64,000 nt of DNA from positions 17,918,001-17,982,000 of the forward strand of contig NC_092400.1 in the NCBI RefSeq assembly GCF_030028105.1. Reading direction: 5' to 3'. Made by a program: the position numbers and the translations under genes. This stretch comes from Mobula birostris. Taxonomy: Eukaryota. Below are positions 31,749 to 63,710 of the stretch, in pieces. The first letter of the stretch is position 1. Each line of letters begins with the position of its first letter. The notes below the pieces were generated by a model. That model had not been told where the DNA came from, searched no databases, and saw nothing but the letters and a program-made list of their open reading frames with translations.

Positions 31749-32768
31749 TCAGAGGAAAACTGCCGAGCTCAGGTGTCGATCCGTAGACGGCTCTGCCTTC
31801 GATTCTCGGGGCTCCATTTCCTGATCGGTTGTTGATTTGGAAAAGCTGACATTAAGGGGGCCCAAAGCTTTCCTCAAGGCACCTTTAAACGCAGAACTTG
31901 AAAAGTAGTAGATAACTGGATCGACCACACTGTTCAGATATGTCATGAATAATGTATTATAAAATATATTAACTGCCCTGATATATGACTGGCAATCTTC
32001 ATCACTTCTAAGCCTTGTGATTAAAACGGCGACCACAGCAACATTAGTGGGCAGGAAACAAAATATGAAAACTGCCGTCACGGCGATCACAAGCTTAATC
32101 GCTCGCTTATATTTACCCCTTAAGTCACTGTCCATCTGTCTTAACTTCCAGATGATGCAGGAGGTAGAGAACAGAATCACCGTAACCGGTAACACAAACT
32201 TAAATATTATAAAAACCACATCAGTCCAAATTGCTGTGGGATTCATGGGGTAGTTTATGTTGAAAGGCTCACAGAACGTGACATTCCTTTGGATGAAGTC
32301 GTGACTTTCTATCAACAAGTGCAAACAAATCGTCACTGCCACAATCCAAAGGACGATTGCTATCTTCACCGCACACCTTGGAGTTGCCTTGTTTGCTTTG
32401 TGGAGCGGATGGACCACCTTAAAATAGCGATCAATCGCTATGATCATAAGGAAAATGATGCTGCCGACGCGGTTTAAGGAAATCATGAATATGTTCAGGC
32501 GACAGAAGACATCACCAAAAATCCAATCCTTGTCATATATGTAGTAGGTGGCTCGGAACGGAAGACAGCTGATTAGCAGAGTGTCCGCAATTGCCAAGTT
32601 CAGAGAATACACCGTGTTTGGCTTCCAGCTCTTCACATGGAAGCAGTAGATCCACAAAGCAATCGCATTTCCAATGAATCCCAGGATGCATGTTATAATA
32701 ATTACTGGCGAATTGTACGTCGAACTGGAATCGTCAACGGGAGTACAGCGGGGGGCCATGTTCTCCAT
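31749..32768 (-). CDS. Hydroxycarboxylic acid receptor-like GPCR (HCAR family), paralog A, 339 aa, intronless CDS
   Basis: Seven TM segments: GNxxA, LAIAD, LPFR, WIFGD, NRVGS (Arg3.36), DRYFKVVHP, CFLP, TYLNSVVDPVIYYFSS. First ATG is at 32768 in ACAATGG context; the track start at 32804 is TTG. Confidence 0.93.
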   Translation of the reverse strand: MENMAPRCTPVDDSSSTYNSPVIIITCILGFIGNAIALWIYCFHVKSWKPNTVYSLNLAIADTLLISCLPFRATYYIYDKDWIFGDVFCRLNIFMISLNRVGSIIFLMIIAIDRYFKVVHPLHKANKATPRCAVKIAIVLWIVAVTICLHLLIESHDFIQRNVTFCEPFNINYPMNPTAIWTDVVFIIFKFVLPVTVILFSTSCIIWKLRQMDSDLRGKYKRAIKLVIAVTAVFIFCFLPTNVAVVAVLITRLRSDEDCQSYIRAVNIFYNTLFMTYLNSVVDPVIYYFSSSAFKGALRKALGPLNVSFSKSTTDQEMEPRESKAEPSTDRHLSSAVFL

Positions 32769-32834
32769 TGTAAAAGTACTCCAGTAACTTCCGTTACATT
32801 GCAATAAAACGTTTTACTTAACTGAAAGATAGGC

Positions 32835-32900
32835 AAATTTATACACTTTCTCTAGATTACGTCATGTCACATGACGGGGTTAACAAAATTGGGGAAGTAC
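32835..32900 (-). promoter_or_regulatory. Candidate proximal promoter of paralog A
   Basis: TATAAA (32843-32838), TTACGTCA (32857-32864), GTCACATGAC E-box (32866-32875) and GGGGAAGT ETS motif (32891-32898), all within 130 bp of the ATG. Confidence 0.55.
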
Positions 32901-32917
32901 GGGATTTGTAAACTTAC

Positions 32918-33881: not shown

Positions 33882-33920
33882 TTACTGAGAAAAAAAATTC
33901 AAAGATACCATATGATTGAA

Positions 33921-33971
33921 TATGCATGAGGTAGAGAACAGAGTAACAGTAACCGGTAAGCCAAATTTAAA
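33921..33971 (-). pseudogene. HCAR-like TM5 relic
   Basis: Translates FKFGLPVTVTLFSTSCI, versus FKFVLPVTVILFSTSCI in paralog A (15/17 identical). Confidence 0.75.
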
Positions 33972-34106
33972 CTGTTCTCCACACGCAAATTGATCTCTTT
34001 GGGATCAAATTTAATGAATAAAAATAATCGTAATGAGAGCATTCACATTCTTATTACACCCATATCAAAACATTAAACCTTATTAGATATTCGGAACTCA
34101 ATAATT

Positions 34107-34310
34107 TGGGGCGGCACTGGAGTGTAGTGGTCAGCACAACGCTTCACAGTACGGGCGACCCAAGTTCAATTCCTGCTGCCGCCTGTAAGGAGTTTGTACG
34201 TTTTGTTTTCCCCGTGACCGCGTGGGCTTCCTCAGGGTGCTCCGGTTTCCTCCCACAGTCCAAAGACCTACCGGTTAGTAGGTTAATTGGTCATTGTAAG
34301 TGGTCCTGTG
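34107..34310 (+). mobile_element. tRNA-derived V-SINE (HE1-like)
   Basis: Box A tggagtgtagtgg, box B agttcaattcc and V-domain gggtgctccggtttcctcccacagtccaaagac. Confidence 0.8.
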
Positions 34311-34959
34311 ATCAGAATCAGAATCAAGTTTATTATCATCAGCACGTGTTGTGAAACTTGTTAACTTAGCAGCAGCAGCACAATTCAGTACATGATACTA
34401 TAGAAAGAAAGAAATAAGTAAATAAATTACAGTGAGTGTGTATATATGTATACTGAATTGATGTAAAATAGTGGAAAACAGAAATATTATATTTTTTTAG
34501 AAGTGTTCATGGGTTCAATGTCCATTTAGGAATCGTATGGCAGAGGGGAAGAAGCAGTTCCTGAATCGCTGAGTGTGTGCCTTCAGGCTTCTGTATCTCC
34601 TATCTGATGGTAACAGTGAGAAAAGGGCATGTCCCGGGTGATTAGTGTCCTTAATAATGAACGTCACCTTTCTGAGGCACCGGTCCTTGAAGATGTTTTG
34701 GGTACTCAGGAGGCAAGTACCCAAGATGGAGCTGATTAATTTTACAACTTTCTGTAGCTTCTTTCGGTCCAGTGTAGAAGCTCCCCCCCTCCCTTTCCAG
34801 ATAGTGATGCAGCCTGTCAACATTCTCTCTATTGGACATCTATGGAGGTTTCTGAGTGTTTTAGCTGACAAACCAAATATCATCAAACTCCTAATGAAAT
34901 ATAGCTTTCAGTACGCTGGATGAACTCAGCAGGTCGGGCAGCATCAGTTAGAAACGATG

Positions 34960-34995
34960 AGTCGACGTTTCGGGCCGGAACCCTTCATCAGGACT
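34960..34995 (-). ncRNA. Minimal type I hammerhead ribozyme (Penelope-associated)
   Basis: AGUC-CUGAUGA-A-GGGUUCCGGCCC-GAAA-C-GUC^-GACU on the minus strand. Confidence 0.8.
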
Positions 34996-36289
34996 GAAGA
35001 ATGAAAGATGGGGAAGGATTTGAAGAATGCTTGTAGCGTCAGTTGAAAGACCAGTAATTTGAAAGGCAAAGGGGTGGGGGAGGGGAAGTATTGACATCAT
35101 AGCCCTGAAAACAATGGGTAGTAGAAGAAGGAGACGGAACCATGAGGGAGCTGGGGGAAGGGGTAGAGTGAAATAGGGATAGAGGAAGGGAGGGGGAGGG
35201 AATTACCAGAAGTTGGAGAATTCTATGTTCATACCAAGGGGCTGGAGACTACCTAGATGGTACATGAGGTGTAGCTCCTCCAACCTGAGTAAGCCTCATT
35301 ATGGCAGTAGAGGAGGCCATGTATAGACATATCTGAATGGGAATGGGAAGCAGAGATGAAGTGGGTAGCTACTGGGAGATCCTCTCTGTTGTGGCAGACG
35401 GAGCGGAGGTGCTCGACGAAGCAGTCCCCCAATCTGCGTCGGGTTTTACCGATGTAGAGGAGGCCGCACCAGGAGCACTGAATGCATTAGGTGACCCCAA
35501 CAGACCCACAAGTGAAGTGTTGTCTCACCTGGAAGGACTGTTTGAGGCCCTGAATTGTTGCAAGAGATGAGGTGTAGCATTTATGCTTACAGTGATAAGT
35601 GCTGGGTTGGAGCTCAGTGGGGTTGGATGTGCAGATAAGGGAGCCACGGAGGGACCGATCCCTGCGGAAAGCGGAGAGGGGTGGAGAGGGAAAGATGTGC
35701 TTAGTGGTGGGGTCCTGTTGAAGGTGGTGGAAGTTGTGGAGGATAATGTGCTGGATCCGGAGGCTGGTGGGGTGGTAGGTAAGGACAAGGGGAACTCTGT
35801 CCCTGTTGTGGTTGCAGGAGGATGGGGTGAGGGCCGAAGTGCAGGAAATGGAGGAGATGCAGGTGATGGCATCATTGATGATGGTAGAAGGGAAACCACG
35901 TTCCTTAAAGAAAGAGGACATTTGAGATGTCCTGGAACGGAAAGCCTCATCCTCGGAGCAGATGCGGTGGAGACAGAGGAACTGGGAATAGGGAATGGCA
36001 CTTTTGCATGTGGCAGGGTGGGAAGAGGTATAGTCGAGGTAGTTATGAGAGTCAGTGGGCTTGTAGAAGATGACAGTGGACAGTCTGTCTCCAAAGATGG
36101 AGACCGAGACATCAAGAAAGGGGAGAGAAGTGTCCGAGATAGAGGAAGTGAATTTGAGGGCTGCGTGGAAGTTTGAAGTCAATGAAATTGACGAGCTCAG
36201 CATGGGTGCAGGAAGCAGCACCAATTTAGTCCTCAATGTACCGAAGGAAAAGTTGGGGAGCAGTACCAGAATAGGTTTGCAGCACAGAC

Positions 36290-37431
36290 CCAGCTACGCC
36301 TGCCTCTTCGTTGGTTATGTGGAACAGTCTGTGCTCCAAACCTATTCTGGTACTGCTCCTCAACTTTTCCTTCGTTACATTGACGACTACATTGATGCTG
36401 CTTCCTGCACCCATGCTGAGCTCGTCAATTTCATCGACTTTACTTCAAACTTCCACGCAGCCCTCAAATTCACTTGGTCTATCTCTGACACTTCTCTCCC
36501 CTTTCTTGATTTCTCAGTCTCCATCTCTGGAGACAGACTGTCCACTGTCATCTTCTACAAGCCCACTGACTCTCATAACTACCTCGACTATACCTCTTCC
36601 CACCCTGCCACATGCAAAAATGCCATTCCCTATTCCCAGTTCCTCCGTCTCCGCCGCATCTGCTCCGAGGATGAGGCTTTCCGTTCCAGGACATCTCAAA
36701 TGTCCTCTTTCTTTAAGGATCGTGGTTTCCCTTGTACCGTCATCAATGATGCCCTCACCCGCATCTCCCCCATTTCCTGCACTTCGGCCCTCACCCCATC
36801 CTCCCACAACCACAACAGGGAGAGAGTTCCCCTTATCTTTACCTACCACCCCACCAGCCTCCGGATCCAGCACATTATCCTCTGCAACTTCCGCCACCTT
36901 CAACAGGATCCCACCAATAAGCACATCTTTCCCTCTCCACCCCTCTCCGCTTTCCGCAAGGATCGGTCCCTCCGTGACTCCCTTATCCGCACGTCCATCC
37001 CCACTGATCTCCAACCCGGCACTTATCCCTGTAAGCGTAAGTGCTACACCTGTCCCTACACCTCATCTCTTGCAACCATTCAGGGCCCCAAACAGTCCTT
37101 CCAGGTGAGACAACACTTCACTTGTGGGTCTGTTGGGGTCATCTATTGCATCCGGTGCTCCCGGTGCGGCTTCCTCTACGTCGGTAAAACCCGACGCAGA
37201 TTGGGGGACCGCTTCGTCGAGCACCTCCACTCCGTCTGCCACAACAGACAGGATCTCCCAGTAGCCACCCACTTCAACTCTGCTTCCCATTCCCATTCAG
37301 GTATGTCCATACATGGCCCCCTCGACTGCCATAATGAGGCTAAACTCAGGTTGGAGGAGCTACACCTCATATACTGTCTAGGTAGTCTCCAGCCCCTTGG
37401 TATGAACATAGAATTCTCCAACTTCTGGTAA
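36290..37431 (+). pseudogene. 5'-truncated Penelope RT plus GIY-YIG endonuclease reading frame (uninterrupted)
   Basis: PSYACLF, LRYIDD, LPFLD, YKPTD..YL, IPYSQFLR and VIYCIRC..LYVGKT motifs. The first ~73 aa of the track ORF come from the inverted arm. Confidence 0.88.
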
Positions 37432-37638
37432 TTCCCTCCCCCTCCCTTCCTCTATCCTTATTTCACTCTACCCCCTCCCCCAGCTCCCTCATGGTTCCGC
37501 CTCCTTCTTCTACTACCCATTGTTTTCAGGACTATGACGTCAATACTTCCCCTCCCCCACCCCTTTGCCTTTCAAATTACTGGTCTTTCAACTGAAGCTA
37601 CAAACATTCTTCAAATCCTTCCCCATCTTTCATTCTTC

Positions 37639-37674
37639 AGTCCTGATGAAGGGTTCCGGCCCGAAACGTCGACT
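37639..37674 (+). ncRNA. Minimal type I hammerhead ribozyme (Penelope-associated)
   Basis: AGTC CTGATGA A GGGTTCCGGCCC GAAAC GTC GACT; predicted cleavage after C37670. Confidence 0.82.
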
Positions 37675-41461: not shown

Positions 41462-44400
41462 ATTTGGGAGTTACAAAGCATAACCCAGAGTCAACAGATG
41501 CTTTTCTTTTCTCATGTCGATGCAAGCAATGAAGCAGAAAGTGACCAAAACTGTTTTACAAACCTATGTGGAATATAAAATGCTGTCGATCCAAATTGCT
41601 GCAGTATTGAAAGCATATAACTCATGTTGCTGGGCACACATTGTGTCGCTTGTAGACGTGTGGCTCTTTATTTTGATCTATTTCGAGATTTAGCACAGGA
41701 AAAGGCCCTTCCGGCTCACTGAGCTCCTGCACCAATTAGCCTCCTAATCCAAACGTGCAGGAAAGCCGAGCACCGGGAGGAAACCCACACGGTCACGGAG
41801 AGAACATGCACACTGCTTACAGAGAGCAACAGGAATTGAACCCAGGCCACTGGTGTTGGTGCTGTAATAGCACTACGCTAACTGTGCTGACCCAAACAAG
41901 TTCCACAAGCAAGTGGAAACAAACGCCAGTTCCACAATTCTCAGAGCCCCGTACATCCTGCTTACATTACAGAGTTCTTGGACCATCTTAAAACTGAGAT
42001 CAAGGGGTAAATTCATCAAGAGGATGACACGGTCAATCAAGTTTAGCAAAGTCATAAACATCTTAAGGGGATATAGAAAATCACCAGAACTCCAGTACTT
42101 CTCAGTTACAAAGTCATCACCCTGCAACGGGACATCACAGCACATGAACAGTGCCCACAAGTACCAGATTCAGCGAACACACAGTTCTGCATTTGAATTC
42201 CACAATTTCGAACTCCAGCTGTATAGGTAGGGTCGATGCAAGCACGCTTTTTCCACTGAGGTTGGGTGGGACGGCAACTAGACGTCACGAGTTAAGGGCG
42301 AATGCTGAAAAGTTTAAGGGGAACGTGAGTGGGAACTTCTTCACTCAGAGGGTCGTGAGAGTGTGGAAGGAGCGGCCATCACAAATATTGCATGCAAGCT
42401 CGATTTTAATGTTTAAGAGAAGTTTCGATGGTAGGTACATGGAAGGCTATGGTCCTGTGCAGGTTAATGGGAGTAGACAGTTTAAATGGTTCAGCACAGA
42501 CTAGATAGGCCAAACGGCCCGTTTCTCTGCTGTACTTTTCTATGACTGTATAATTTTACCTGAAAATAAAACATATACAAAGCAGTTGTATTTCTGACTA
42601 GTCCAAGTCGATTCTTCTAAAAATTACTGGTGGGTTGTGAGCAGAATCGACAATCTCATTGGAGACGTGTTGCGGGGCTGAATTGTCAATTGTTAAAATG
42701 CCACGGTAAACACACTCACAATATTTCAGAGACAAGTAAACAAAATGATCACAAATGAAGTTCTGCATACTCAGAGCATTAATGTTGCATTCCATATTTA
42801 TTAACATTTCTCTCAGAAATCACAAGATTTAATGCAATGAAATATATCTGGCATTACTATCAGAATTTTATAGGTTATAGCATACAACTGTATGATACTT
42901 CAACTTGATATTAAGTACATGAACCATTTGTATGGTCCTATCAAAACAGTAAAACTTTGTTTGGGATTCAGAATTCACTCCTAATCCTGTTGAAATGCAA
43001 TTTCTCTATCTGAATAAAAACTACTCAACTGGAATCCTACACTACCCCAGCTCTCGTCGTAGACTGGGAAGTTGGTCCAGCAGGTGCCCTCAATGAGATG
43101 AACAGAATATTATTCAAATCAATCTCATTGATTATACAGAATTGCTGTTCCATGCACTATACTTGCAGAGTACAGAGAGACAACAGTATTCCCAGAGTAG
43201 ATTTTCTGTTACCACAAGGATCTGCTGAATGAAGGTTAAAAGTGATTTCTGCTCTCCTTCATGCAGCCTGGACATGGTTTATCATGGCTGTAGGAGGGAA
43301 GGCAGCAATAGTTCCACGCAACACTCTCTATCATAGTGTTTAAGTTCATGTGGGTAAGTGTGAAATAATCGGAGAAAGACACCAGAAATATTTTGATTAG
43401 ATCCTGGGGAATAAAAGAACTTACTAACTCAGTATCCCACATGCCCTTGATTCTTCATAAGGAATACTCAGTGTTCATTCCTTTCCACACTGCCCCCTTG
43501 TGTTGGAGTTCTTTGCTGCAAACAATGATCCACAAAAGTCACTTCCAAGGAACTCAAACAACAGAAAGTCTGCTAGAAATCCAACCAACATACATAAAAT
43601 GCTGGAGGAACTCAGCAGGCCAGGCAGCATCTATAGAAAAAAGTATAGTCAATGTTTCTGGCCGAGACCCTTCAGCAGGACTTTCAAGATCAAATAAATT
43701 TCTGTTTTTTGACATTCCTAGATGGGTCACAACAGGTAAGCAAAATTATTTTAATATTAGTAAATCAGAGCGGATTTTATAATAACCTGGTAACTTCATT
43801 GACACCCATAACACATAGGAGCAGAATTTGTCCATTCAGCCCATCGACTCTGTTCCACCATTCCATCATAGTAGCTTTACTATCGCTCTGAACCCATTCT
43901 CATGCCTTCTGGCCAGGAGTCAGCAATCAAGAACCTATCAACCTCTGCTTTAAATATACCTAATGACTTGTCCTCCACAACCACCTCTGGCAGAGAATTC
44001 CACAGACTGACCATCCTCTTGTAAAAGAAATTCCTCCATATCTCCGTTCTAAATACTGACCATCTTTCTTTAATGATGACCACCCTCCTTCAGTACTGAT
44101 AAAATCTATCTTCATTCCAGATTTCAATTTTATTTACAGAAAATAAATTCCCCAGTTTTGAACCGGCGCTTCACTTCCTCTCTCCAGTTCACCAGAAAAG
44201 GCTTTTCTTTGGCACCATTCCAGCAACCGCTTACAACACTTCGCTACTGACTGAAAGTCTGCAAGTAGGATTGAACTTGGTTGAATAATATTACTGCAGA
44301 TTCCTCTGGACAGTCAGTCAACCTGAGAATAATGGGTAGAAGCTATCTACAAACGAGACACATAGGCTGAAGTCATCTGAGGAAGTAATTGCTTACATGG

Positions 44401-44479
44401 AAAGGAAAATCTTAAAATATCCATAAACCCTTTCCTTCAAGGCAGGGGTTCCCAAATGGGATTCATGGAACCCCTGCTG

Positions 44480-45405
44480 TTTTCTTAACAAAACTATAAA
44501 AGTTTATTTACATCACATATACACAAGGTACAGACAGTCAATATTTACAAGACAGTAAGTATACTCAAATTAAAATGTGGTTACTACCGTCTATAAGATA
44601 ATCAATACCTCGTGGGGGGGGGGGGGCGACCGCTCACGGAAGTCCCCACAATGTGCCCGTCGCAACCGTGTGCTCCCTGTCCAGGTACAGTCGGGCACGA
44701 AAGTATCCTCAGAAAAGGGGCAGGCAGTCGGCCCGGGCAGCGCCCGCTCTCCACTTTCCTCCGCCATGCCTGTGACAAGACCCAGGCCCGAGCCCGCCAA
44801 CAGATCCTCCTCACGCCCCGACCCCCGGCGTACGCGTGGTACACTGACCGCTCCCGCACACAGAGTGGACAGGTGGACGGGGTGTCAGTTAACCTGCTCA
44901 AGAACCCGTTGTACGGGACTACCGCTGCAACACCTTCCACCCCAGATCCGCAATGTACAGGGGAAGCACCCCTGCGTAAAGGGACTTCCACTGGGGACCT
45001 CCTCCGCTGCCAGGTGGTAACACAAGGCAGGTCCGGTCGGCAGACGAAGGCAAGGAAGTTAAAGGTGTGCAGGAGCAGCCCGTACAAGAAACGCTTCGGA
45101 ACGTCACGGAACTGCACGGTGGGCATCCCTGCGAGACGCCTCACGTTGAGCGGGACCCTTTCCCGCGTGGTCTCCTGAGGCCAGGGTCCGACCACCACAG
45201 CGGGTAGTGGTGCAGCCGGATCCCCTCCACTTCCCCGCGCCCTCCCTACACCCGCCTTAATAGGATCGGGACCAGAGCCCCCAGCAGCCAGGAGCACCCA
45301 GCCTGGATGAGGCCAGACCCCGTCCCCTCCACAGTTCCCGGTAAAAGCGGCGCAGTTCCCTCAGAGCAGCACGTCATCCGGGATCCGCGTGCCCTCCTGC
45401 CAAAA
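44480..45405 (-). mobile_element. Tx1-type LINE 3' fragment inserted into a hAT MITE
   Basis: VPYNGFLSRLTDTPSTCPLC..SVYHAY zinc motif. MITE halves at 44443 and ~45412. Duplicated at 61087-62446. Confidence 0.75.
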
Positions 45406-45637
45406 TAAAATAGGGAACCCACGATTTAAAGACACCGTTTCTTAAAAAACAACCTCCGAAATAAACTTACTTTATGTAGATAAGATGCAGTATCTTCTCT
45501 ACACATAAAGGGAAGTGTATTTCAGAACTTGTTACTTAAACTCGACTTATCTCGCACCAACATTTTAAGAATTGATCAATTTCTGCGTCAGGTCGCATTT
45601 ATCAGCTTTACTTTGATCACATAACAATACAGAGCAT

Positions 45638-46669
45638 CTAGTTCACGCGGACCGGGATCGATTGGATGGCTGTCGATGAGCTCGTTTGCTGATCAACAGT
45701 CTGCCCCTCCCTGGATGTTCCTTGTTCAGTGGATGATCTGCGACATCTTAAATTAAGACGAGGTAGAGCTTTCTCCAAAGCATGTTGAAACTGCGAAGTT
45801 GAAAAATAGTAAATAATTGGATCGACCACACTGTTCAGATACGTTATAAACAACGTATTGTAAAAGATATTCGCTGCTGTGCGATACGACTTGCAGTCGA
45901 ATGGATTTCTTAGTTTAGTCACCAAAACCGCAACCACAGCAACGCTGGTGGGCAAGAAGCAAATGGCAAAAACCGCAGCCACGGCTATCACAAGTTTCAC
46001 AGTTCGCTTATATTTAGCCCGCATTCCAGCTTCCATCTGCCGTAACCTCCAGGTGATGGAGGACGTAGAGAACAGGATAACTGAAACTGGCAAAAGAAAC
46101 TTAAAGAATATAAAAATAAAGTCAGTCCAAATTGCTGGGGGACTTAGAGCCTTGTTTATGCTGAAAGGCTCACAGTTTGTCACGTTGTGTTGTTCGAAGA
46201 GATGTTTGTCTATCAGCAAGTGCAAGCAAATAGCCACCGCTACAATCCACAGACCGCCTGTTATCATCACCGCACACCCTGTAGAGATCTTGTTTACCTT
46301 GTGGAGTGAATGGACCACCTTAAAGTAACGATCGATCGCTATAACCATGAGGAAAAAGACGCTGCCAATCCGGTTCAGGAAAATCGTGAAAACGTTCAGT
46401 CGACACAGTCCATCACCAAAAATCCAGTCCTTCCCTCGGAGAAAATAAACAGCTCGAAAAGGTAGACAGCATAGTAACAGAGTGTCCGCAACCATGAGAT
46501 TCAGTGAATACACAATACTTGGTTTCCGCGACTTCACATGAACACAAAAGATCCACAAAGCAATTGTATTTCCAGCAAGGCCGAAGATTAATGTGATGAT
46601 GATTATGGGCGGATTGTAGGACCAGTTAACATCTTCAGCAGGAGCACATTGCGGGGTCGAGTTCGCCAT
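45638..46669 (-). CDS. Hydroxycarboxylic acid receptor-like GPCR, paralog B, 343 aa
   Basis: Intact 7TM ORF: GNTIALWIFC, LPFRA, NRIGS, DRYFKVVH, CEPF, CFLP, TYLNSVVDPIIYYFS. ACAATGG Kozak context. Confidence 0.94.
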   Translation of the reverse strand: MANSTPQCAPAEDVNWSYNPPIIIITLIFGLAGNTIALWIFCVHVKSRKPSIVYSLNLMVADTLLLCCLPFRAVYFLRGKDWIFGDGLCRLNVFTIFLNRIGSVFFLMVIAIDRYFKVVHSLHKVNKISTGCAVMITGGLWIVAVAICLHLLIDKHLFEQHNVTNCEPFSINKALSPPAIWTDFIFIFFKFLLPVSVILFSTSSITWRLRQMEAGMRAKYKRTVKLVIAVAAVFAICFLPTSVAVVAVLVTKLRNPFDCKSYRTAANIFYNTLFITYLNSVVDPIIYYFSTSQFQHALEKALPRLNLRCRRSSTEQGTSREGQTVDQQTSSSTAIQSIPVRVN

Positions 46670-47420
46670 TGTGCGAAAAAGTCAAGTTGTGTCCGGGGAG
46701 AGCAAACTCAATCAGAGTCGAACAACCTGAAAAGTTGATCTTCGAATGAGTTTGTTCCCCTGTGGGTGGAGTATATGGGCGGAGTGAAATAGTCAGAGCA
46801 CCAATAAATTGTGCGATCGAATCATCAATCCAGGAAAACTAGAAGCATCAGCATTTAAATTAAGCAGCAAACAATGAAATATATTTAGCTTTCATTGCCA
46901 GGCATAAAATTGTACAATACTTAGTTTTGCTGTTGAGTGCATGAATAATTTTATATTAAAAATTAATGAGGGGGCATAATTTTAAGCTGATAGGAGGGAA
47001 GTGTAGGGGGGACGTCAGAGGCAGGGTTCTTTACGCAGTAAGGTTGGGTTCGAGAAGCACACTGCCAAGTTTGGTGGTAGAAGAAGATACATTAGGGGCA
47101 TTTCAGAACCGTTAGGTGGGCCCATGGATGATAGGAAAATGGAGGACTATGTAGGGTTTGACTAATATCAAAGTAGATTAAAATTCGACACACATCGTAC
47201 TGTGATATAATATGTTCTTTTAAAAAGGACATATTATGTAATAGTAATCAACCCCAAAAATTATTTCACTGTTACTAAAGTCATTCTTCTAAAATCTCCT
47301 GCCGACAACTGACATCAAAATGCATTGGGATATGAATTAAAAGCAGAAAACGCAGAAAACTCCCAGCATGTCAACTATGGAAAGAAAATCAGAGTTTATG
47401 CTTCAGTATATGGGTGTTTC

Positions 47421-47955: not shown

Positions 47956-50869
47956 AACGTTCTGTATATGAGTATTACACCCATCTCACCAATTACCCTA
48001 CTAATCCAGAATGCGGCAGGAAAGCCGAGCACCAGGAGGAACCCATGCAGTCATAGATAGAATGTACATACCCCTTACTGAGAGCAGGTAGAAACAAATC
48101 AGCAACTACAAACAAATGGCGGTTCCACAATTCAGAGAGCCCCACCGGTCATCATTCCGTACATCCTGATTACATTACAGACTGCTTGCGCCATCAAAAA
48201 CTAAGTTAAATTCGTTAGAACGATTACACTGTCAATCAAGTTTTTTATAAGTCATAAATATCTTGAGGGGTCAATGAACATCACAAAAAAATCCAGTGCT
48301 TCTCAGTTACAAAGTTATCACCCTGCAATGGGACATGACAGTACATGAACAATATCCACAAATACCAGATTCACAATGTCTACAATTCATGTATAAACAA
48401 TACTGTATCTGAATTCCATGATTTGATCCCTAGCTGTATAGAGAGGGTAAATGCAAACAGGCTTTTTACTGGGGCTCGGTGGGATGGCAACTAGAGGTCA
48501 TGGGTTAAGACTTACAGGTGAAAGGTTTAAGGGGATCATGAAGGGAATCTTGATTACCCAGAGGATAGTGAGGGTGGGAATGAGCTTCCAGCACAGTAGT
48601 GCATGTGAGTTCAATATCAATGTGTTAAGAGAAGTTTGGATCGGTACATGGATGGTAGGCATTTGGAAGGCTATGGTCCTGGTGGAGGTCATTGAGAGCA
48701 GGCAGTTTAAATGGTTTGGTATGGACTAGAGAGGCCCAAGAGCCTGTTTCTGTGCTGTGCTCTATGATTTTACGTGAATATAAAGTATCTACAAAGCAGT
48801 TATATTTCTGACTAGTCCTAGGATGATTGTTATAATAACTACTGGTGGGCTGTCAGCAGCGTTGTCGACCTCACTAGAGACACATTGATGGGCCGATTTA
48901 TCCATTGTCCGAAGAAAACTTATTCAAAGATTATCATGTTTGTATACAGCAAAATTCAGAGTATCATAATTCGGAGTTCAAAATTTACTAACATTGCTGC
49001 TAGAAAGCATAAGATTTAATGCAATGAAATATAAATGGCATTATTATCAGAATTTGGTAAGTCATAACATACTTCGATTTGATACTAGGTACTTAAACCA
49101 TTTCTATGGTCCTATCAAAATTATAAAACTTTCTTTAGGATTCAGAGTTCACTCCATATTCTGCTGAAATGCAAATTCTCTAACTATAAAAATTATCCAA
49201 TTGGAAACTCATCCTATCCCAACTCACATCATAAACTAGTAAATTGTTCCAGCAGGTGCCCCGAATGAGATTAGCAAAATATCATTCAAATCCACCTCAT
49301 TGATTACACAGAATTGCTGTGCCATACACTTCACTCACAGCGTACAGAGACACAACAAGACTCCCATGTAGGTCTTCTGTTTCCGCAAGGATCTGCTGAA
49401 TGAAGGTTAAAAGTGATTTCTCTCTCCTTCATGCAGCCCGGACATGACTTATCATGGTTGTTGGAGGGGAGGCAGCAATAGTTCCTCGGGCCACACTCCA
49501 TCATGGTGTTTGTAACGTGGTGAGGCAGTTCAGTCTATTTTAAAGTCATTCACTGCTGCACTGCTGCCCTACTCATAGCGATAAATTCCTAGCATACATA
49601 TGCATGCATGCACTTCAGTCACAAACGTGTATGTGAGCACGCACATGCACAGAAAACCATGCATCACAAAGTTCTTCAACATTCTAGTTACCACAGTGCA
49701 ACTGTCTGCATGCGTGTCATTGTGCATGTGTGTGCAGATACGTGTTTAGGTTCATACAGGTCAGCGTGAAATACTAGGACAAAAGACACCAGAAATATGT
49801 TGATTAGATGCCAGGGGAAAAAGAACTTACTATCTCCGTATCATATTGTCCTTGGTTGTAAAGACATTCTTCAAAAGGTATGTTCAGTGTTTATTTCATT
49901 TGACACTGCCCTCTAATGTCAGAGTTCTTCACTGGAAACAATGACTTACACAAATCTTCTATTTCCAAGGAATTAAAGATCAAATAAATTGCTATATAAC
50001 CCATTGGAGTAGAATTCGGCCATTCGGCCCATCGAGTCTATTCCATCATTCCATCATGGTTGCTTTATATCGCTCTGAACGCCATTCTCCTGCCTACTCC
50101 CCGTAACCTTACTAATCAACAACCTATCAAACTCCGCTTTAATTATACTTGGCTCAATAACCATCTGTGGCAAAGAATTCCACAGATTCACCAGCCTGTG
50201 GTTAAAGAAATTCCTCCACATCTCTGTTCTAAATGCTGACCATCCTTCTTCATTACAGATTTCAATTTTATTTCCTGAAAATAAATTCCCCGATTTTGAA
50301 CCGGAGCTAACCTCCTGTCTCCAGTTCCAGTTCACTAGGAGAGGCTTTTTTTTTCCAATTCAGTACCTAGTTCCAGTACTGTCACAATATGGGTACATGC
50401 AGCTTGGCACCAGCACTGCGGCCCCTTGCATCACTTTCCTCCTGACTGAAAGTCCACTGGTAGGGTTGTTCTTGATTGACTTGATTACCGCTGATTCTAG
50501 TGGGCAGTCAGTCAACCTGAGAATGGCCCACTATCACGTGTAGAAGCTAGCTACAAACGAGACACATAGGCTGAAGTCCTCTGAGGGAAAAAAGAAGTTT
50601 TAACTATCCATAAACCCTTTCCTTTAAACCGGGGGTTCCCAACCTGGGGTCCACTCATTGGGAAGCCTCCATTGGCATATAAAAGATTGGGAAACTACTA
50701 CTTAAAGACAGGAAGGTTTTCTTAATGAACACGCTCTGAATAAGCTTACTTAAGCAGTTAAAATACAATTTCATCTCCACGTAAAGGGAAGCGTATTTGA
50801 GAACTGGCTTGTTAAGATCTGAGTTTTGTTGCACCAACATTTTCAGAATTTATCAATTTCTGTGTTGAG

Positions 50870-55668: not shown

Positions 55669-55881
55669 GAAAAGGTAGACAGCACATTAACAGAGTGTCT
55701 GCAATCATGAGATTCAGTGAATACACAATATTTGGTTTCCGTGACTTCACATGAACAAAACAGATCCACAAAACAATCTTATTTCCAGCAACCCGAGGAT
55801 GAATGTGACAATAATTACAGGCGGATTGTAGGATGAGTTAATACCTTCACCAAGAGAACATTGCGGGGTCGAGTTCGCCAT
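55669..55881 (-). pseudogene. HCAR-like pseudogene (N-terminus to TM2 only)
   Basis: ATG at 55881 gives MANSTPQCSLGEGINSSYNPPVIIVTFILG, then a frameshift, then WICFVHVKSRKPNIVYSLNLMIADTLLMCCLPF abutting the L1 tail. Confidence 0.9.
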
Positions 55882-58800
55882 TGTGCGAAAAGGCGGTCAC
55901 ACAGTCAAGATGTTTCAGAGGGAAGCAAATTCATTCGGAGAGAAACAACCTTACAAGCTGATCTTCTTTGAATGAGTTTGTTCTCCTGTGGGTGTTGTAT
56001 ATGGGCGGAGTAAATTAGTCAGAGATGTCTGATGGAATCACCAAGTTCCAGGAAATCTAGACGCACAAGCATTCAGATTAAGGAGCAGACAATGAAAGAT
56101 ATCTGATTGTCACATTTCTTCCCCAATCTGATGTTTGGTTTAAACAACAACTGAACTCCTTGACTATGACTGCATGTTTTCATGTATTGAGTCTCTGACA
56201 CATGAACCATGAGGTTCAAGAACAGTTACTACCCTCCAACCATCAAGCTCTTGAACAAAAGAGGACAACTACACCCATTCTGTTTCCACAATCAAATGAT
56301 CTCATTTCATCCTGACCAGGGGTCTTGACCCAAAACGTTGACTGTACTTCTTCCTATAGATGCTGCCTGGCCTGCTGCTTTCCACCAGCATTTTGTGTGT
56401 GTTGCATCTCACTTTAACCACACTTTACCTTGTTTTTTCATCTCCGTCTTATTTGCTGCTCGTTATTTAGATTTGCATTTGCACCGTTTGTTGTTCGTTG
56501 ATCCTGCTTACAGTTACTGATCTATAGATTTACTGCATGCCCGCAAGGAAAAGAGTCTCAGGGTTGTACATGGTGGCGTGTCTGTACTCTAACAATCAAT
56601 TTTACTTTGAAATTTGAACTTTTGAACTTTGAACATAATTGCCTAATTGGATAATTATTGAGCTGGTGGGCAGGTGTGATTCATAAAATGGCCACTATTG
56701 GGATTCAGTTAAAGTCCATAGTAGCCACTGGCCACTGTGAATGGAAGGCTAATGCAGGTACAGTACCTGCTGACCAGAATTCCTGGGATTTCTGTTGATA
56801 TCAACTTAGATAAAGACTGAAGATGATGGATTCCAAAGGGTCTCCCAGGGTATCAGAGCAGACCTGCTGTCAGATAATTTAACCACTGGAGGCACTAGCC
56901 TGGTAAAGATCAGAGGCACCAAGCTTTATCATTTGGACTTCTAACAGGTTCCCTCCTATAGCATGTGAGTTATTCTGCTCAGACTCCCAGTGCTCATGCA
57001 GAGAAATACAAAATGAATTCATGCCTTTATGTCCCAATGCTCAGACAATCCTTCATTGCCATCTCAATTTCTCTTCACTTCAATCGTTCAGCCTTCCTCC
57101 AATCTTGCTGCCGTCACTGTGGACACGCCTGCCTCACTCAACAAATATGAATTCCCCCGCCGACTTTGGGAAACCCTGGCCAACGGCTACTCAAAGTACA
57201 GAAGAAACATTCGGGATGGAACTGAGAAGCCCATGCCCATACTTCAGAAGCGCTACATAGAGCTGCGTAATTAGTAGGAGGAGCAGACCACCTCACCTAC
57301 ACCCACTCCACACCCTGTCAGGAAGAATCTGCTCATCTGTGGAAAACCATAAAACCATCAAAAGCTATTGGATCAGAATTAGGCTAATTGGACCAGCGGG
57401 TCTGCTCCACTACTTAATCATGGCTGAGTTTCTGTTTCCAACTCCAGTCTCCCAACTTTATCCTATAACCCTTAAAACCTCCTTAACAACCAAGAACATA
57501 TAAATGTTGTCTTAAATACACTCAAAGATTTGGCCCCAAATGCCCTTTATGACAATGAATTCCACAGACTCCCCACACTCAGGCTGCGGAAATTTCTCAT
57601 CTCAGTTCTAAAGAGATGATGCTTTATTCTGGGGCTGTGCCCTCGAATCCTAAACCTCTGGATCCTTGGATCCTCTCCCACTAATGGAAACATCCTCTGC
57701 ACATCTACATTATCAGGGTTTGTGGTTCCTCATATTGAGATGACTGATTACCTCAGAATGGAAAATAGAAGCATCTATAGGAACAGACAGGAGTGGATAA
57801 TGTTCCTTATCTGAACAGCTGGACATGTTGCACCCTGTGTGCATTTAATATTTTGTAATAGTTAAGTACTCTTGTATATAGATTGCTTAATTAAGGATTC
57901 TTGTTATAATTAGTTTAAATTTCTATGTAAATTACGTTATTTGGACACGTCATCACATGATACGGACACGTATTGCTTGAAGTAAAAGAATAAAGTTAAA
58001 ACTCACATCTCTTGTCTCCTGTTTTCTTTTGAGTCAGTTTAAAGTTTTGGAGCTACAAAACATAACCCAGGGCCCTCGGGCCACACTCGATCATAGTGCT
58101 TGTAATGTGGTGAGGCAGTTCAGTCTATCTTAAAGTCATTCACTGCTGCACTGATGACCAACTCAGAATAATAAATACCTGTGAGCTCAGTTTCAAAGTT
58201 CAGGTGAATTTTGGGCTGGAATATGCATGGTGGCAAATGCAGGGCTATGGACCTGGTGAAGGTCAATGAGAGTAGGCAGCTTAAATGGTTTGGTACAGAC
58301 TAGATCGGCCAAAGGGCCTGTTTCTGTGCTGTACTTTTCCTTGACGCTAACATTTTACATGAAAATAAAATATCTACAAAGCAGTTGTATTTCTGACTAG
58401 TCCTAGGATGATTGTTATCATAACTACCGGTGGGCTGTGAGCAGTATTGACGACCTCACTAGAGACACATCGCTGGGATTATTTCTCCATTGTCAAAAAA
58501 ACTTTATTCAAAGATAATCATATCTGCATACAGCAAAGTTCAGAGCATCAAAATTCAGAATTCAAAATTTTTAATATTGCCACCAGAATGCATAACATTT
58601 AATGTAAAGAAATACATCCGGTTTTGTTATCGGAACTTTGTAGGTCATAACATAGAAATGTATAATACTTCATTTCGATATTAAGTACATGAACCATTTG
58701 TATGGTCCTATCAAAACCATTAAATTTTATTTGCTATTCAGAGTTCACTCCTAATTCTGTTGAAATGCAAATTCTCTACCTGAATGAAAATTGTCCAGTT

Positions 58801-59827: not shown

Positions 59828-61293
59828 CCATCTCACTGATTATACAGCATTGCCTTTCCAGGCACTTTATGCGACAGAGGACAGAGAGACAACAGTATTC
59901 CCAGAGAAGATTTTCTGTTACCACAAAGATCTGCTGAATGAAGGTTAAAAGTGATTTCCGCTCTCCTTCATGCAGCCTGGACATGGTTTACCATGGTTGT
60001 AGGAGGGGAGGCAGCAATAGTTCCTCGCGACACACTCTATCATGGTGTTTAAGTTCATGTGGGTAAGTGTGAAATAATCGGACAGAGACACCAGACATAT
60101 ATTGATTAAATCCCGGGGAATAAAAGAACTTCCTAATTCAGAATCCCACATGCCCTTGGTTGCCCTTGATTCTTCATAAGGAATATTCAGTGTTCATTTC
60201 TTTCCACACTGCCACCTTGTGTTGGAGTTCTTTGCTGCAAACAATGATCCACAAAAGTCACTTCCAAGGAACTCAAACAAGTGAAAGTCTGCTGGAAATC
60301 CAAGCAACATACACAAAATGCTGGAGGAACTCAGCAGGCCAGGCAGCATCTATGGAAAAAAGTACAGTCAATGTTTCTGGCTGAGACCCTTCGGCAGGAC
60401 TTCACTGACACCCATAACACATAGGAGAAGAATTAGTCCATTCAGCCCATCGACTCTGCTCGACCATTCCATCATGGTAGCTTTACTATCGCTCTGAACC
60501 CATTCTCATGCCTTCTGGCCGGGAGTCAGCAATCAAGAACCTATCAACCTCTGCTTTAAATATACCCAATGACTTGTCCTCCACAACCACCTCTGGCAGA
60601 GAATTCCACAGACTGACCATCCTCTTGTAAAAGAAATTCCTCCATATCTCCGTTCTAAATACTGACCATCTTTCTTTAATGATGACCACCCTCCTTCAGT
60701 ACTGATAAAATCTATCTTCATTCCAGATTTCAATTTTATTTACGGAAAATAAATTCCCCAGTTTTGAACCGGCGCTTCACTTCCTCTCTCCAGTTCACCA
60801 GAAAAGGCTTTTCTTTGGCACCATTCCAGCAACCGCTTACAACACTTCCCTACTGACTGAAAGTCTGCAGGTAGGATTGAACTTGGTTGAATAATATTAC
60901 TGCAGATTCCTCTGGACAGTCAGTCAACCTGAGAATAATGGGTAGAAGCTATCTACAAACGAGACACATAGGCTGAAGTCATCTGAGGAAGTAATTGCTT
61001 ATATGGAAAGAGAAAATCTTAAAATATCCATAAACCCTTTCCTTCAAAGCAGGGGTTCCCAACCTGAGAGTCATGGAACCCTGACTGTTTTCTAAACAAA
61101 ACTGTAAAAGTTTATTTACATCACATATACACAAGGTACAACAGTCAATATTTACAAGACAGTAAGTATACTCAAATTCAAATGTGGTTACTACTGTCTA
61201 TAAGACAATCAATACCTCAGGGGGCGGGGGGGGGCAACCGCTCACAGAAGTCCCCACAATGTGTCCATTGCAACCGCGTGCTCCCTCTCCAGG

Positions 61294-61892
61294 TGTCATG
61301 GTCCGGTCCGTGAAGTCCACAATCCCGTTCACGGTCCGGTCCATTAACCCTTGCTCCAGGTATTCCTGTCTACCTTGTTTCTGTTCCTGTTGAGCACTAA
61401 TTGAGGCAGCTGCTTCTCTTTGGGGCTGGCTGCATAAATACCTCCAGAGACCAGGGCGTGGCTGCTGGATTGTTCTTGTCTCCCTTCCTCTTGTATCCCT
61501 TCTCCTGCCTTTTGTTTCCTTGCCTGAAGCCTTGCCTTCCATTGCCAGTAACTCTCGCGCCTCGCCTGAAGTTCTTGTCTTGCCTTGCATTGCCTTAAGT
61601 CTTGCCTTGTCTTGCTGGTAACTCTCGCCTCATCTCGCCTGAAGTCTTGTCTTGAGCCACCTTCTACCTAGCTCCCTTCCTGTCCCTTACCTCCGCCGGG
61701 GAAGTCAGGCCATCTTGCCATTACCCTGAAGTTGGTTCTGTCCCTTCCTGTCCCTTGCCTCCGTCGGGTGGAGTACCGCGCCCCGCCCAGAAGTACCGCG
61801 CCCCAAGCCAAGCTTCAAGACCCCTCTGGTCTCAAGTCTCTGGCCTCAAGTCTCTGGCCTCAAGTCTCTGGCCTCAAGTCTCGCCTCAAGTC
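61294..61892 (+). mobile_element. LTR-like element 5' fragment with 14-bp tandem repeats
   Basis: Starts TGTCATGGTCCGGTCCGTGA; (cctcaagtctctgg) x~4 at 61825-61892; absent from unit 1. Confidence 0.7.
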
Positions 61893-62678
61893 TCCCGCAC
61901 ACAGAGTGGACAGGTGGACGGGGTGTCAGTTAACCTGCTCAAGAACCCGTTGTACGGGACTACCGCTGCAACACCTTCCACCCCAGATCCGCAATGCACA
62001 GGGGAAGCACCCCTGCGTAAAGGGACTTCCACTGGGGACCTCCTCCGCTGCCAGGTGGTAACACAAGGCAGGTCCGGTCGGCAGACGAAGGCAAGGAAGT
62101 TAAAGGTGTGCAGGAGCAGCCCGTACAAGAAACGCTTCGGAACGTCACGGAACTGCACGGTGGGCATCCCTGCGAGACGCCTCACGTTGAGCGGGACCCT
62201 TTCCCGCGTGGTCTCCTGAGGCCAGGGTCCGACCACCACAGCGGGTGGTGGTGCAGCCGGATCCCCTCCACTTCCCCGCGCCCTCCCTACACCCACCCTA
62301 ATAGGATCGGGACCAGAGCCCCCAGCAGCCAGGAGCACCCAGCCTGGATGAGGCCAGACCCCGTCCCCTCCACAGTTCCCGGTAAAAGCGGCGTAGTTCC
62401 CTCAGAGCAGCACGTCATCCGGGATCCGCGTGCCCTCCTGCCAAAATAAAATAGGGAACCCACGATTTAAAGACACCGTTTCTTAAAAAACAACCTCCGA
62501 AATAAACTTACTTTATGTAGATAAGATGCAGTATCTTCTGTACACATAAAGGGAAGTGTATTTCAGAACTTGTTACTTAAGCTCGACTTATCTCGCACCA
62601 ACATTTTAAGAATTGATCAATTTCTGCGTCAGGTCGCATTTATCAGCTTTACTTTGATCACATAACAATACAGAGCAT

Positions 62679-63710
62679 CTAGTTCACGCGGACCGGGAGC
62701 GATCGGATGGCTGTCGATGAGCTCGTTTGCTGATCCACAGTCTGCCCCTCCCTGGATGTTCCTTGTTCAGTGGATGATCTGCGAGAGTTTAAATTAAGAC
62801 CAAGTAGAGCTTTCTCCAAAGCATGTTGAAACTGCGAAGTTGAAAAATAGTAAATAATGGGATCGACCACACTGTTCAAATACGTAATAAACAACGTATT
62901 GTAAAAGATATTCGCTGCTGTGCGATACGACTTGCAGTCGGATGGTTTTCTTAGTTTAGTCACCAAAACCGCAACCACAGCAACGCTGGTGGGCAAGAAG
63001 CAAATGACAAAAACCACAGCCAGGGCTATCACAAGTTTCACAGTTCGCTTATATTTAGCCTGCATTTCAGCTTCCATCTGCCGTAACCTCCAGATGATGG
63101 AGGACGTAGAGAACAGGATAACTGAAACTGGCAAAAGAAACTGAAAAAATATCAAAATAAAGTCAGTCCAAACTGCTGAGGGACTTAGAGCCTTGTTTAT
63201 GCTGAAAGGCTCACAGTTTGTCACGTTGTGTTGTTCGAAGAGATGTTTGTCTATCAGCAAGTGCAAGCAAATAGCCACCGCTACAATCCACAGACCGCCT
63301 GCTATCATCACCGCACACCTTGTAGAGATCTTGTTTACCTTGTGGAGTGGATGGACCACCTTAAAGTAACGATCGATCGCTATAACCATGAGGAAAAAGA
63401 CGCTGCCAATCCGGTTCAGGGAAATCGTGAAAACGTTCACTCGACACATTCCATCACCAAAACTCCAGACCTTCCCTCGGATAAAATAAACAGCCCGAAA
63501 AGGTAGACAGCACATTAACAGAGTGTCCGCAATCATGAGATTCAGTGAATACACAATACTTGGTTTCCGCGACTTCACATGAACACAAAAGATCCACAAA
63601 GCAATCGTATTTCCAGCAAGCCCGAGGATGAATGTGACGATGATTATGGGCGAGTTGTAGGATGAGTTAACATCTTCAGCAGGAGCACATTGCGGGGTCG
63701 AGTTCGTCAT
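62679..63710 (-). CDS. Hydroxycarboxylic acid receptor-like GPCR, paralog C, 343 aa
   Basis: Intact 7TM ORF, about 90% amino-acid identity to paralog B (35 differences by manual count), with the same HCAR motifs. Confidence 0.94.
   Translation of the reverse strand: MTNSTPQCAPAEDVNSSYNSPIIIVTFILGLAGNTIALWIFCVHVKSRKPSIVYSLNLMIADTLLMCCLPFRAVYFIRGKVWSFGDGMCRVNVFTISLNRIGSVFFLMVIAIDRYFKVVHPLHKVNKISTRCAVMIAGGLWIVAVAICLHLLIDKHLFEQHNVTNCEPFSINKALSPSAVWTDFILIFFQFLLPVSVILFSTSSIIWRLRQMEAEMQAKYKRTVKLVIALAVVFVICFLPTSVAVVAVLVTKLRKPSDCKSYRTAANIFYNTLFITYLNSVVDPIIYYFSTSQFQHALEKALLGLNLNSRRSSTEQGTSREGQTVDQQTSSSTAIRSLPVRVN

Follow-up and report, generated by a model that had tools for sequence, protein, structure and literature searches.

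An elasmobranch-wide clade of HCAR-related receptors with a putatively rebuilt pocket wall

The 64,000-nt stretch of Mobula birostris DNA analysed here (the window) holds a set of intact and decayed genes resembling HCARs, which raises the question of which receptor lineage they belong to and what kind of ligand they would recognize. We refer to this lineage as clade X and to its apparent nearest neighbour, a shark HCAR1-like gene, as clade Y.

Intact and dead gene copies in the window

The initial annotation had claimed three intact genes, and all three ORFs were verified on the minus strand, each matching 7tm_1 over its whole length (E 1e-46 to 1e-49). Class A (rhodopsin-like) GPCR features are present, namely 7tm_1, seven helices, and the DRY and D/NPxxY motifs, and the AlphaFold model of the 62679 gene is 7TM with a mean pLDDT of 84. 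Dead copies were sought in the window with nhmmer and tblastn. Where one pseudogene and one relic had been counted before, the pseudogene stands, but there are three relics plus a 50-nt scrap; the claimed co-orientation extends to every copy, intact or dead. The features are as follows:

31749..32768, minus strand: intact single-exon clade-X receptor, 339 aa (ORF and 7tm_1 match)
33922..33971, minus strand: 50-nt clade-X scrap, TM5 codons 189-205 (86% to the 31749 gene, E 1e-10; nhmmer E 2e-6)
41518..42690, minus strand: Relic A, decayed, without a start codon and with stops and indels (nhmmer; three pieces, 42684-42555, 42209-41907, and 41662-41518)
43122..46965, no strand assigned: segmental duplication unit, copy 1 (91-96% to 59830-64000, self-blastn blocks)
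45638..46669, minus strand: intact clade-X receptor, 343 aa (ORF and 7tm_1 match)
48098..48905, minus strand: Relic B, decayed, two pieces, in-frame stops (nhmmer E 1e-14 and 1e-13)
55669..55881, minus strand: young pseudogene, first 214 nt only, cut off in TM2 (87-91% match with the 343-aa genes; the alignment shows one nucleotide lost near nt 90)
58320..58490, minus strand: Relic C, decayed 5' part, in-frame stops (tblastn E 3e-10, nhmmer E 2e-16)
59830..64000, no strand assigned: segmental duplication unit, second young copy, running past the window end (self-blastn blocks)
62679..63710, minus strand: intact clade-X receptor, 343 aa (ORF and 7tm_1 match)

The three old relics start at 42690, 48905, and 58490, and their individual pieces reach nhmmer E values of 1e-6 to 1e-28; the relics are 72-81% alike and about 63-68% identical to the intact genes. 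Because a relic lies 3-7 kb downstream of every young copy, the repeated unit is a young gene plus a relic, present three times. This arrangement of intact, dead, and co-oriented copies is not due to chance. Copies arise through segmental duplication and die often, a birth-and-death turnover.

The intact genes differ in apparent age. The 31749 gene groups with Leucoraja P0020 and Narcine P0023 and P0022 (SH 99) and belongs to an older batoid sub-lineage that is conserved and has orthologs in skates and electric rays; its dN/dS against the other two intact genes is 0.25-0.26. The 45638 and 62679 genes are members of a recent stingray/devil-ray burst, a lineage of 17 near-full-length clusters from four ray species in which devil rays and stingrays burst separately. 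This young pair shares 95.4% nt and 89.8% aa identity, with 47 substitutions in the CDS and 35 residue differences. Its dN/dS of 1.13 shows no significant positive selection and no difference from 1 (Fisher p 0.73). Neither copy carries a stop or frameshift, whereas the flanks predict about 6.8 (rough P 0.001). This expectation is itself rough, as 5 of the 6 indels in the flanks involve a single nucleotide and may be sequencing errors. An assembly artefact is an unlikely source of the pair given the 47 CDS differences and differing flanking insertions.

An HCAR proper would be expected between DENR and KNTC1. In positions 1-31,700, a Pfam scan of 150 of the 167 stop-to-stop ORFs of at least 55 aa, which skipped two transposon stretches and could let short exons escape, returned only transposon domains above threshold, among them an ALKBH8_N match at 7715-8329 that is presumably a LINE C-terminus. 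The remaining matches are weak and sub-threshold. Separately, contigs from four runs (type guessed, origin uncertain) were matched to 44700-56500; one of 251 nt is an exact match to 45598-45848, and further ones align along the CDS with roughly 90-95% identity. They provide no evidence on expression.

Clade X among HCAR, OXER1, and GPR31

Clade X comprises 77 clusters from 22 named species of sharks, skates, and rays and is elasmobranch-wide and multi-copy. It is monophyletic (77/77; support 100/100 for 14 sampled rows). Its members lie within an HCAR/OXER1/GPR31 ingroup that separates from P2Y-like outgroups with support 100/99, and 76 of the 77 carry Arg3.36, a residue treated in PMC10516952. 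NCBI labels the clade "HCAR1/2/3-like", with most proteins named "HCAR2-like" or "HCAR3-like"; this HCAR2/3-like label does not mirror orthology. In Peters 2019, XM_007902210.1 (elephant shark) and XM_020512881.1 (whale shark) are given as HCA1. Clade X falls outside the 14-row HCAR clade (100/99), and the best trees place it closest to the single-copy clade Y, X+Y being recovered at 97/87 in the careful C20 tree and again in the best ingroup tree. Placing X with bony-vertebrate HCARs alone fails the ingroup test (p-AU 0.021) and survives when outgroups are included (0.118), and the wider X+Y+B+HCAR grouping has bootstrap 61 and p-AU 0.52. The backbone connecting GPR31, OXER1, HCAR, and (B,Y,X) has weak support (bootstrap 55-61), and under LG+F+G4 the outgroup joins on the X branch.

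The proposal of an orphan, independently expanded clade with an altered pocket is supported; X, which is elasmobranch-specific, lies outside mammalian HCAR1-3, OXER1, and GPR31 in the best trees. The author of that proposal had named clustering with GPR31 or OXER1 as the refuting outcome. GPR31, although of the same subfamily, is rejected as an ortholog (p-AU 0.015, from only two GPR31-like rows, P0290 and P0312, which we take to be GPR31 from their motifs). The OXER1 grouping is never the best tree but retains p-AU values of 0.118, 0.292, and 0.36 in three tests (delta lnL 11.7, 13.0, and 6.3).

Median BLAST identity of the least diverged X members falls from 50-51% with Y to 41-43% with HCARs and 38-39% with OXER1-type sequences. 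At 17 columns diagnostic of HCAR versus OXER1, X matches HCAR at 8, OXER1 at 2, and neither at 7; it has 6 columns in common with OXER1 alone and 7 with Y alone. Contigs bearing Y and X are equal in length within species for 8 of 8 named Y clusters, which would suggest X-Y linkage; in Huso, OXER1-type and HCAR-type genes likewise sit on contigs of equal size.

A retained core and an altered wall

Residue claims were checked against PDB and database sequences. All three window genes carry the features first read from them: Arg2.60 (LPFR), Arg3.36, Tyr7.43, Val6.55, CEPF in ECL2, and one N-terminal Cys. Across clade X the core is nearly invariant (R2.60 in 74/77, R3.36 in 76/77, E45.51 in 77/77, Y7.43 in 76/77, L7.39 in 77/77), and R2.60, R3.36, E45.51, and Y7.43 are named as crucial for HCAR1 ligands in PMC12040280. 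One side of the pocket departs from this pattern. Pro45.52 occurs in 71 of 77 X sequences versus none of 212 comparison sequences, and position 5.46 is Lys in 55/77 versus Glu in 185/212. The spacing from W5.38 to P5.50 is 13 in every X sequence versus 12 in all 212 others, a one-residue TM5 insertion on whose placement the assignment of 5.39 (Thr in 75/77 versus His in 207/212) hinges. The true signature of clade X is a rebuilt ECL2-TM5-TM6 wall comprising Pro45.52, Thr5.39, the loss of Glu5.46, and the TM5 insertion.

The HCAR latch (CxSF in ECL2, His5.39, Arg6.55) is absent from all three window genes, which have P45.52, T5.39, and V6.55. In HCAR1/2, Ser45.52-His5.39 and Arg6.55-ECL2 contacts are described as holding ECL2 in place, and ligands are proposed to enter through the TM4-TM5 gap (PMC10516952, PMC11873900); Arg6.55 of HCAR2 makes no direct ligand contact (PMC10516952). 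Two of the three remodelling marks offered initially, Val6.55 and the single N-terminal Cys, do not serve as such: Arg is lacking at 6.55 in 25/31 fish HCARs and the CC pair in 24/31, and both are lacking in 46/46 OXER1-type sequences. Because they are found in OXER1 or fish HCARs, these two features, like Arg2.60, Arg3.36, and Tyr7.43, are not diagnostic; the TM5 insertion, Thr5.39, and Lys5.46 are stronger marks, overlooked at first. Glu5.46 and Arg6.55 are also missing from teleost HCARs, and zebrafish hcar1 reportedly mediates butyrate sensing (PMC7575005); therefore these two losses alone need not shift the ligand class.

Among characterized receptors, HCAR1 (GPR81, the lactate receptor) is the best PDB match by sequence, at about 41% identity, and by fold. 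The top 31 Foldseek matches are HCAR structures, in lists where neither PDB nor fold search contains an OXER1 or GPR31 entry. X resembles HCAR1 in R2.60, R3.36, E45.51, F45.53, L7.39, Y7.43, and a single coding exon, and HCAR genes also occur as tandem clusters; it differs in Pro45.52, Thr5.39, Lys/Gln5.46, Val6.55, Tyr7.36, Asn7.37, the TM5 insertion, a longer ECL2, its separate clade, and two rather than three predicted disulfides. HCAR2/HCAR3 (niacin/ketone and 3-hydroxyoctanoate receptors), described as mammalian duplicates in PMC6532841, share R3.36, Y7.43, and the fold, but have Leu/Val2.60 and Ser/Ile45.51. Clade Y (P0078-83, P0121-123), nearest to X in trees and identity (44-51%), keeps Ser45.52, His5.39, Glu5.46, Arg6.55, and a TM5 of ordinary length, has neither the N-terminal nor the ECL3 cysteines, and forms one cluster per species. 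OXER1 (the 5-oxo-ETE receptor; zebrafish hcar1-3/-4) shares R2.60, R3.36, Y7.43, Asn3.28, a single N-terminal Cys, non-Arg 6.55, and ECL2 length with X, but OXER1-type sequences have Arg45.51 (42/46), Ser45.52, His5.39 (45/46), Glu5.46 (46/46), and Gly6.55, form a separate clade in the best trees, and show 35-39% median identity to X.

Paralogs were also compared for pocket diversification. Pocket sites changed at 0.80 versus 0.96 changes/site elsewhere in the TM region, with no excess and, if anything, fewer changes at pocket positions (Mann-Whitney p 0.09 and 0.08). Because dN/dS of the young pair is about 1 and pocket sites are no more variable, the ligand repertoire shows no sign of diversification.

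Candidate ligands and competing readings

We lean slightly toward reading clade X as a tandem, elasmobranch-wide group, likely born at the HCAR locus, with its core kept and its wall rebuilt, whose members are predicted to be Gi-coupled sensors of an acid more lipophilic than lactate. An old duplication would have split X from clade Y, which retained the canonical pocket, as the trees and equal-sized contigs suggest. By analogy with HCAR structures, Arg3.36/Tyr7.43 would hold the carboxylate, while the TM2 sub-pocket would be shut, as it is in HCAR1, by the pair Arg2.60-Glu45.51. The loss of Ser45.52, His5.39, Glu5.46, and Arg6.55, together with the TM5 insertion and a hydrophobic 3.37, may undo the TM4-TM5 gate latch, and the opened gate would leave space for the acyl tail of a fatty acid, medium-chain or oxidised, of host or microbial origin. 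Because the acid-gripping residues are kept and one pocket wall is rebuilt, the ligand is probably a lipophilic carboxylic acid, bulkier and oilier than lactate. If zebrafish hcar1 and OXER1 orthologs are a guide, the receptors might act in leukocytes or barrier tissues. A more specific version, which we regard as doubtful, is that sharks and rays lack the usual OXER1 and rebuilt an HCAR duplicate into expanded receptors for oxylipins or microbial hydroxy fatty acids; the TM5 insertion and latch loss would open a lateral gate, lipid sensing would be convergent from a lactate-type pocket, and devil rays and stingrays would still be diversifying.

A link to ketone-body use, suggested at the outset, gained no support here: HCAR2, the ketone receptor, is a mammalian duplicate (PMC6532841) and has Leu2.60, sharks keep a separate canonical HCAR-like gene (Y), and no result favoured ketone-body adaptation. 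Clade X might instead be a fast-evolving elasmobranch OXER1 ortholog, expanded as an oxoeicosanoid (5-oxo-ETE-type) leukocyte chemoattractant receptor, with Y as the sole shark HCAR. The best 120 of 338 coelacanth OXER1 matches include no named shark OXER1-type sequence, the sharks there being X and Y, in a word-indexed search that may have overlooked one. The p-AU values above do not reject this grouping; Asn3.28 is present in the window genes and 44/46 OXER1-type sequences, alongside the non-Arg 6.55 and single N-terminal Cys; some fish have multi-copy OXER1-type genes (at least three clusters each in Anguilla and Colossoma); and the Huso contigs would fit. We nevertheless consider it unlikely, since the grouping is never the best tree, each of the four X queries has its lowest median score against OXER1-type sequences, X has Glu45.51, Gly3.38, Asn/Ser6.52, and Tyr7.36 as in HCAR/Y, and the nearly universal OXER1-type His5.39 and Glu5.46 are absent.

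That these are ordinary lactate or short hydroxy-acid receptors, with mutually compensating wall changes and an expansion reflecting dosage or expression partitioning, seems quite improbable. Retention of the four HCAR1-crucial residues, conservation of pocket positions across paralogs, and the HCAR1 matches (from lists without OXER1 and GPR31 entries) would suit it. Set against these, PMC11873900 describes the contact between the Ser45.52 backbone and the agonist hydroxyl as a conserved HCAR feature and Pro changes the backbone, R251A lowers HCAR2 activity about 100-fold (PMC10516952), and clade Y already supplies a canonical pocket. Least credible to us is that the older 31749-type gene is the only one that counts, with the young copies as redundant products of a repeat-rich, unstable region that drift neutrally to loss. 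The young-pair dN/dS of about 1, three live copies versus four dead ones plus the scrap, and a flank full of transposon debris speak for it; the open frames of both young copies despite the roughly 6.8 expected lesions, and the 17 near-full-length clusters from separate bursts, speak against it.

Clade X is a variant of a known receptor family, and lineage-specific tandem expansion is common in class A GPCRs, which makes the finding only moderately surprising until its ligand is identified. These findings nonetheless distinguish a jawed-vertebrate metabolite-receptor lineage masked by automatic "HCAR2-like" annotation and set clade Y, the likely genuine lactate receptor of sharks, apart from an expanded orphan clade. 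With its acid-binding core kept and the latch of the proposed TM4-TM5 entrance gone, clade X offers an experiment of nature on how the HCAR ligand gate works, and it bears on how HCAR/OXER1-type receptors may shift between small acids and lipids.

Layout of the receptor array

The window carries three intact receptor genes, to which profile searches of the window add several degraded copies.

31749-32768, minus strand: intact intronless ORF, full-length class A GPCR, 339 aa (older gene)
45638-46669, minus strand: intact intronless ORF, full-length class A GPCR, 343 aa (young gene)
62679-63710, minus strand: intact intronless ORF, full-length class A GPCR, 343 aa (young gene)
55669-55881: young truncated pseudogene (profile searches)
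starts at 42690, 48905 and 58490: three old relics (profile searches)
33922-33971: 50-nt scrap (profile searches)

The initial annotation was right about three intact genes, and its total of five copies was too low, given the relics and scrap recovered by the profile searches. The predicted model of the 62679-63710 protein has seven helices at a mean pLDDT of 84. In DNA, the young genes are 95.4% identical to each other and 73% identical to the older gene. A unit of young gene plus downstream relic occurs three times, adjoining the older gene, and 43122-46965 and 59830-64000 share matching blocks at 91-96%. The 787 nt immediately 3′ of the young genes (44851-45637 and 61892-62678) differ at 7 sites (0.9%), versus 3.7-4.6% in the CDS and remaining flanks of the pair, explained either by gene conversion in the recent past or by constraint on a 3′ UTR.

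The window also holds transposon-like sequences. A 2.8 kb element at 34905-37729, which we take to be Penelope-like, matches its own reverse complement at 92.7% and has RT-like ORFs in both orientations. The LTR-retrotransposon-like element at 17214-21753, presumably Gypsy-like, has 248-nt direct terminal repeats (88.7%), a GC content of 58-59%, and 5.9 copies of a 51-nt unit within its RT-like ORF. On the minus strand lie a decayed Tc1/Sleeping Beauty-like transposase (12929-13976) and a LINE carrying fragments of an endonuclease, a zinc knuckle, and an RNase H (about 900-4970).

Clade X, its expansion, and its relatives

The best 77 of the 120 matches listed form a single clade (clade X), made up of the three window proteins, two from Logan, and 72 that come from 22 named species of shark, skate, and ray, labeled HCAR1/2/3-like throughout; no chimaera member occurs among those 120. 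Nine X clusters among the matches listed apparently lie on the manta contig, so the array reaches past the window. In a tree of 72 X rows, the older gene falls with single genes of skate and electric ray, and the young genes sit in a 17-cluster burst consisting of a devil-ray group of 8 and a stingray group of 9. The expansion thus combines an old layer shared by elasmobranchs with recent ray layers, and it is not peculiar to Mobula birostris.

The young pair differs by 36.5 nonsynonymous and 10.5 synonymous changes, a dN/dS of 1.13 that does not depart significantly from 1 (p 0.73); in comparison with the older gene the ratio is 0.25. Four of the 35 residue differences fall among the 40 pocket positions (3.33, 5.35, 5.43, and 5.46). 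The young copies contain no stop or frameshift, against ∼6.8 expected from flank rates (rough P 0.001), and no excess pocket variation was found across the burst, pocket sites being no more variable than other TM sites; this argues that the young copies are maintained as open reading frames but does not show that they take different ligands.

Clade Y, a shark HCAR1-like gene (nine clusters, P0078-P0083 and P0121-P0123), has at most one cluster per named species and a canonical HCAR pocket. All eight named Y clusters apparently share a contig with conspecific X genes, which is indirect evidence of X-Y linkage in those species. Both the N-terminal and ECL3 cysteines are gone from Y. Its records for manta and sawfish bear a LOW QUALITY PROTEIN flag, position 3.36 is Gln in the sawfish record, and the matches obtained included no named Y record for Hypanus, Hemitrygon, M. 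hypostoma, or skates; Y may be decaying in rays while X expands. Clade B (P0124, P0125, P0126, P0147, P0166, P0198, and P0295, from lungfish, bichir, bowfin, newts, and a frog) is a second HCAR-like paralog in its species, apparently on the same contig as HCAR in Amia and Lissotriton, and is absent among the teleost and mammal matches obtained.

An LG+C20 tree of 63 rows places X sister to Y (97/87) and B next (90/90), with HCAR (100/99) and OXER1 (100/99, one divergent row included) as separate clades, on a backbone of weak support (bootstrap 55-61). We consider it unlikely that clade X represents OXER1 orthologs. Grouping X with OXER1 is nevertheless not rejected by the AU test (p 0.118; 0.292 with 55 rows, that is, the 63 minus 8 long or odd ones; 0.36 with 49 ingroup rows), and orthology would fit both the lack of a shark OXER1-type protein in the best 120 of 338 matches to coelacanth OXER1 and the OXER1-type and HCAR-type genes apparently sharing one contig in Huso, though not in Polyodon. 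Of the 46 OXER1-type rows, 6 are so named and the others are assigned by tree position. Grouping X with HCAR alone gives p 0.118 (55 rows) and 0.021 (49 ingroup rows), and with B, p 0.043. Under LG+F+G4 (55 rows) the outgroup attaches on the X branch, which we read as probable long-branch attraction. The Huso huso proteins concerned, P0209 (OXER1-type) and P0084 (HCAR-type), apparently lie on the same 45,716,562-nt contig, a hint of either ancestral OXER1-HCAR linkage or a table artifact. Separately, a grouping with GPR31 (P0290/P0312, a label we assume from their motifs) is rejected (p 0.015, 55 rows).

A conserved acid-binding core beside a rebuilt wall

We compared the pockets of 77 X and 212 other sequences. 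Clade X retains R2.60 (74/77, three gaps), R3.36 (76/77, one gap), E45.51 (77/77), and Y7.43 (76/77), the residues singled out by HCAR1 cryo-EM and mutagenesis in the part of that report available (PMC12040280). R2.60, R3.36, and Y7.43 are shared with OXER1-type proteins and are therefore no proof of HCAR membership. Every pocket residue listed by the initial annotation is found in the window genes, and its reading points partly in the right direction, but of the three marks it offered, two lack diagnostic value: 6.55, Val here, lacks Arg in 25/31 fish HCARs, 5/6 clade B, and 46/46 OXER1-type sequences, and the N-terminal CC pair, a single Cys here, is general in tetrapod HCARs only (7/31 fish HCARs).

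The differences lie elsewhere, in the ECL2-TM5-TM6 wall. Position 45.52 is Pro in 71/77 X sequences and in none of the 212 others, 206 of which have Ser, 5.39 is Thr in 75/77 (His in 207/212 others), 5.46 is Lys, Asn, or Gln in 68/77 (Glu in 185/212 others), and 7.37 is Asn in 70/77; the W5.38-P5.50 interval is one residue longer in all 77 and in none of the 212. This set of adjoining changes is the clade X signature. According to the accessible portions of three structural reports, HCAR1/2 have Ser45.52 bonded to His5.39, ECL2 pinned by Arg6.55 without ligand contact, and His5.39 as the gate of a proposed entrance bounded by TM4, TM5, and ECL2, a gap into which the bulky agonist MK-6892 reaches (PMC10516952, PMC11873900, PMC10043007). 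Whereas HCAR1/2 have this Ser45.52-His5.39-Arg6.55 set, clade X has lost the whole ECL2-TM5 latch. P0064 and P0073, a divergent X branch confined to skates, keep the TM5 insertion with Ser at 45.52 and offer a natural control for the Pro45.52 change.

Proposed ligand and significance

In our proposal, the carboxylate head of the ligand would engage Arg3.36/Tyr7.43 and Arg2.60 would block the TM2 subpocket in HCAR1 fashion; with that route blocked, the tail would be directed to the unlatched TM4-TM5 side, expected to be more hydrophobic in X (Ile/Val/Thr at 3.37). We predict that the ligand is a lipophilic carboxylic acid; the suggested ketone-body link is unsupported. Clade X is probably Gi-coupled, by likeness to OXER1, which couples to Gi, and to HCAR1-3, whose Gi coupling is taken from PDB entry titles. 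A leukocyte or barrier role is suggested by likeness to zebrafish hcar1 and hcar1-3/-4, described as neutrophil-enriched in the available text (PMC7575005, PMC9973399).

Cartilaginous fish are credited with at least one HCA1 ortholog (Peters 2019, PMC6532841), and in the part of that source available, the HCA1 list gives a single accession for elephant shark and another for whale shark, each of which may belong to X or to Y. As far as its accessible text goes, an Ensembl cartography describes additional HCAR- and OXER1-like sets in fish and no clade from sharks (PMC6504862), and the visible scope of PMC13237431 is primates alone. No description of clade X was found among the top-listed literature matches, in which subscription coverage was thin; supplements of genome papers that treat gene-family expansion could mention it. 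The cluster is real, and represents a poorly described elasmobranch form of the HCAR/OXER1 subfamily whose structural signature is clear-cut.
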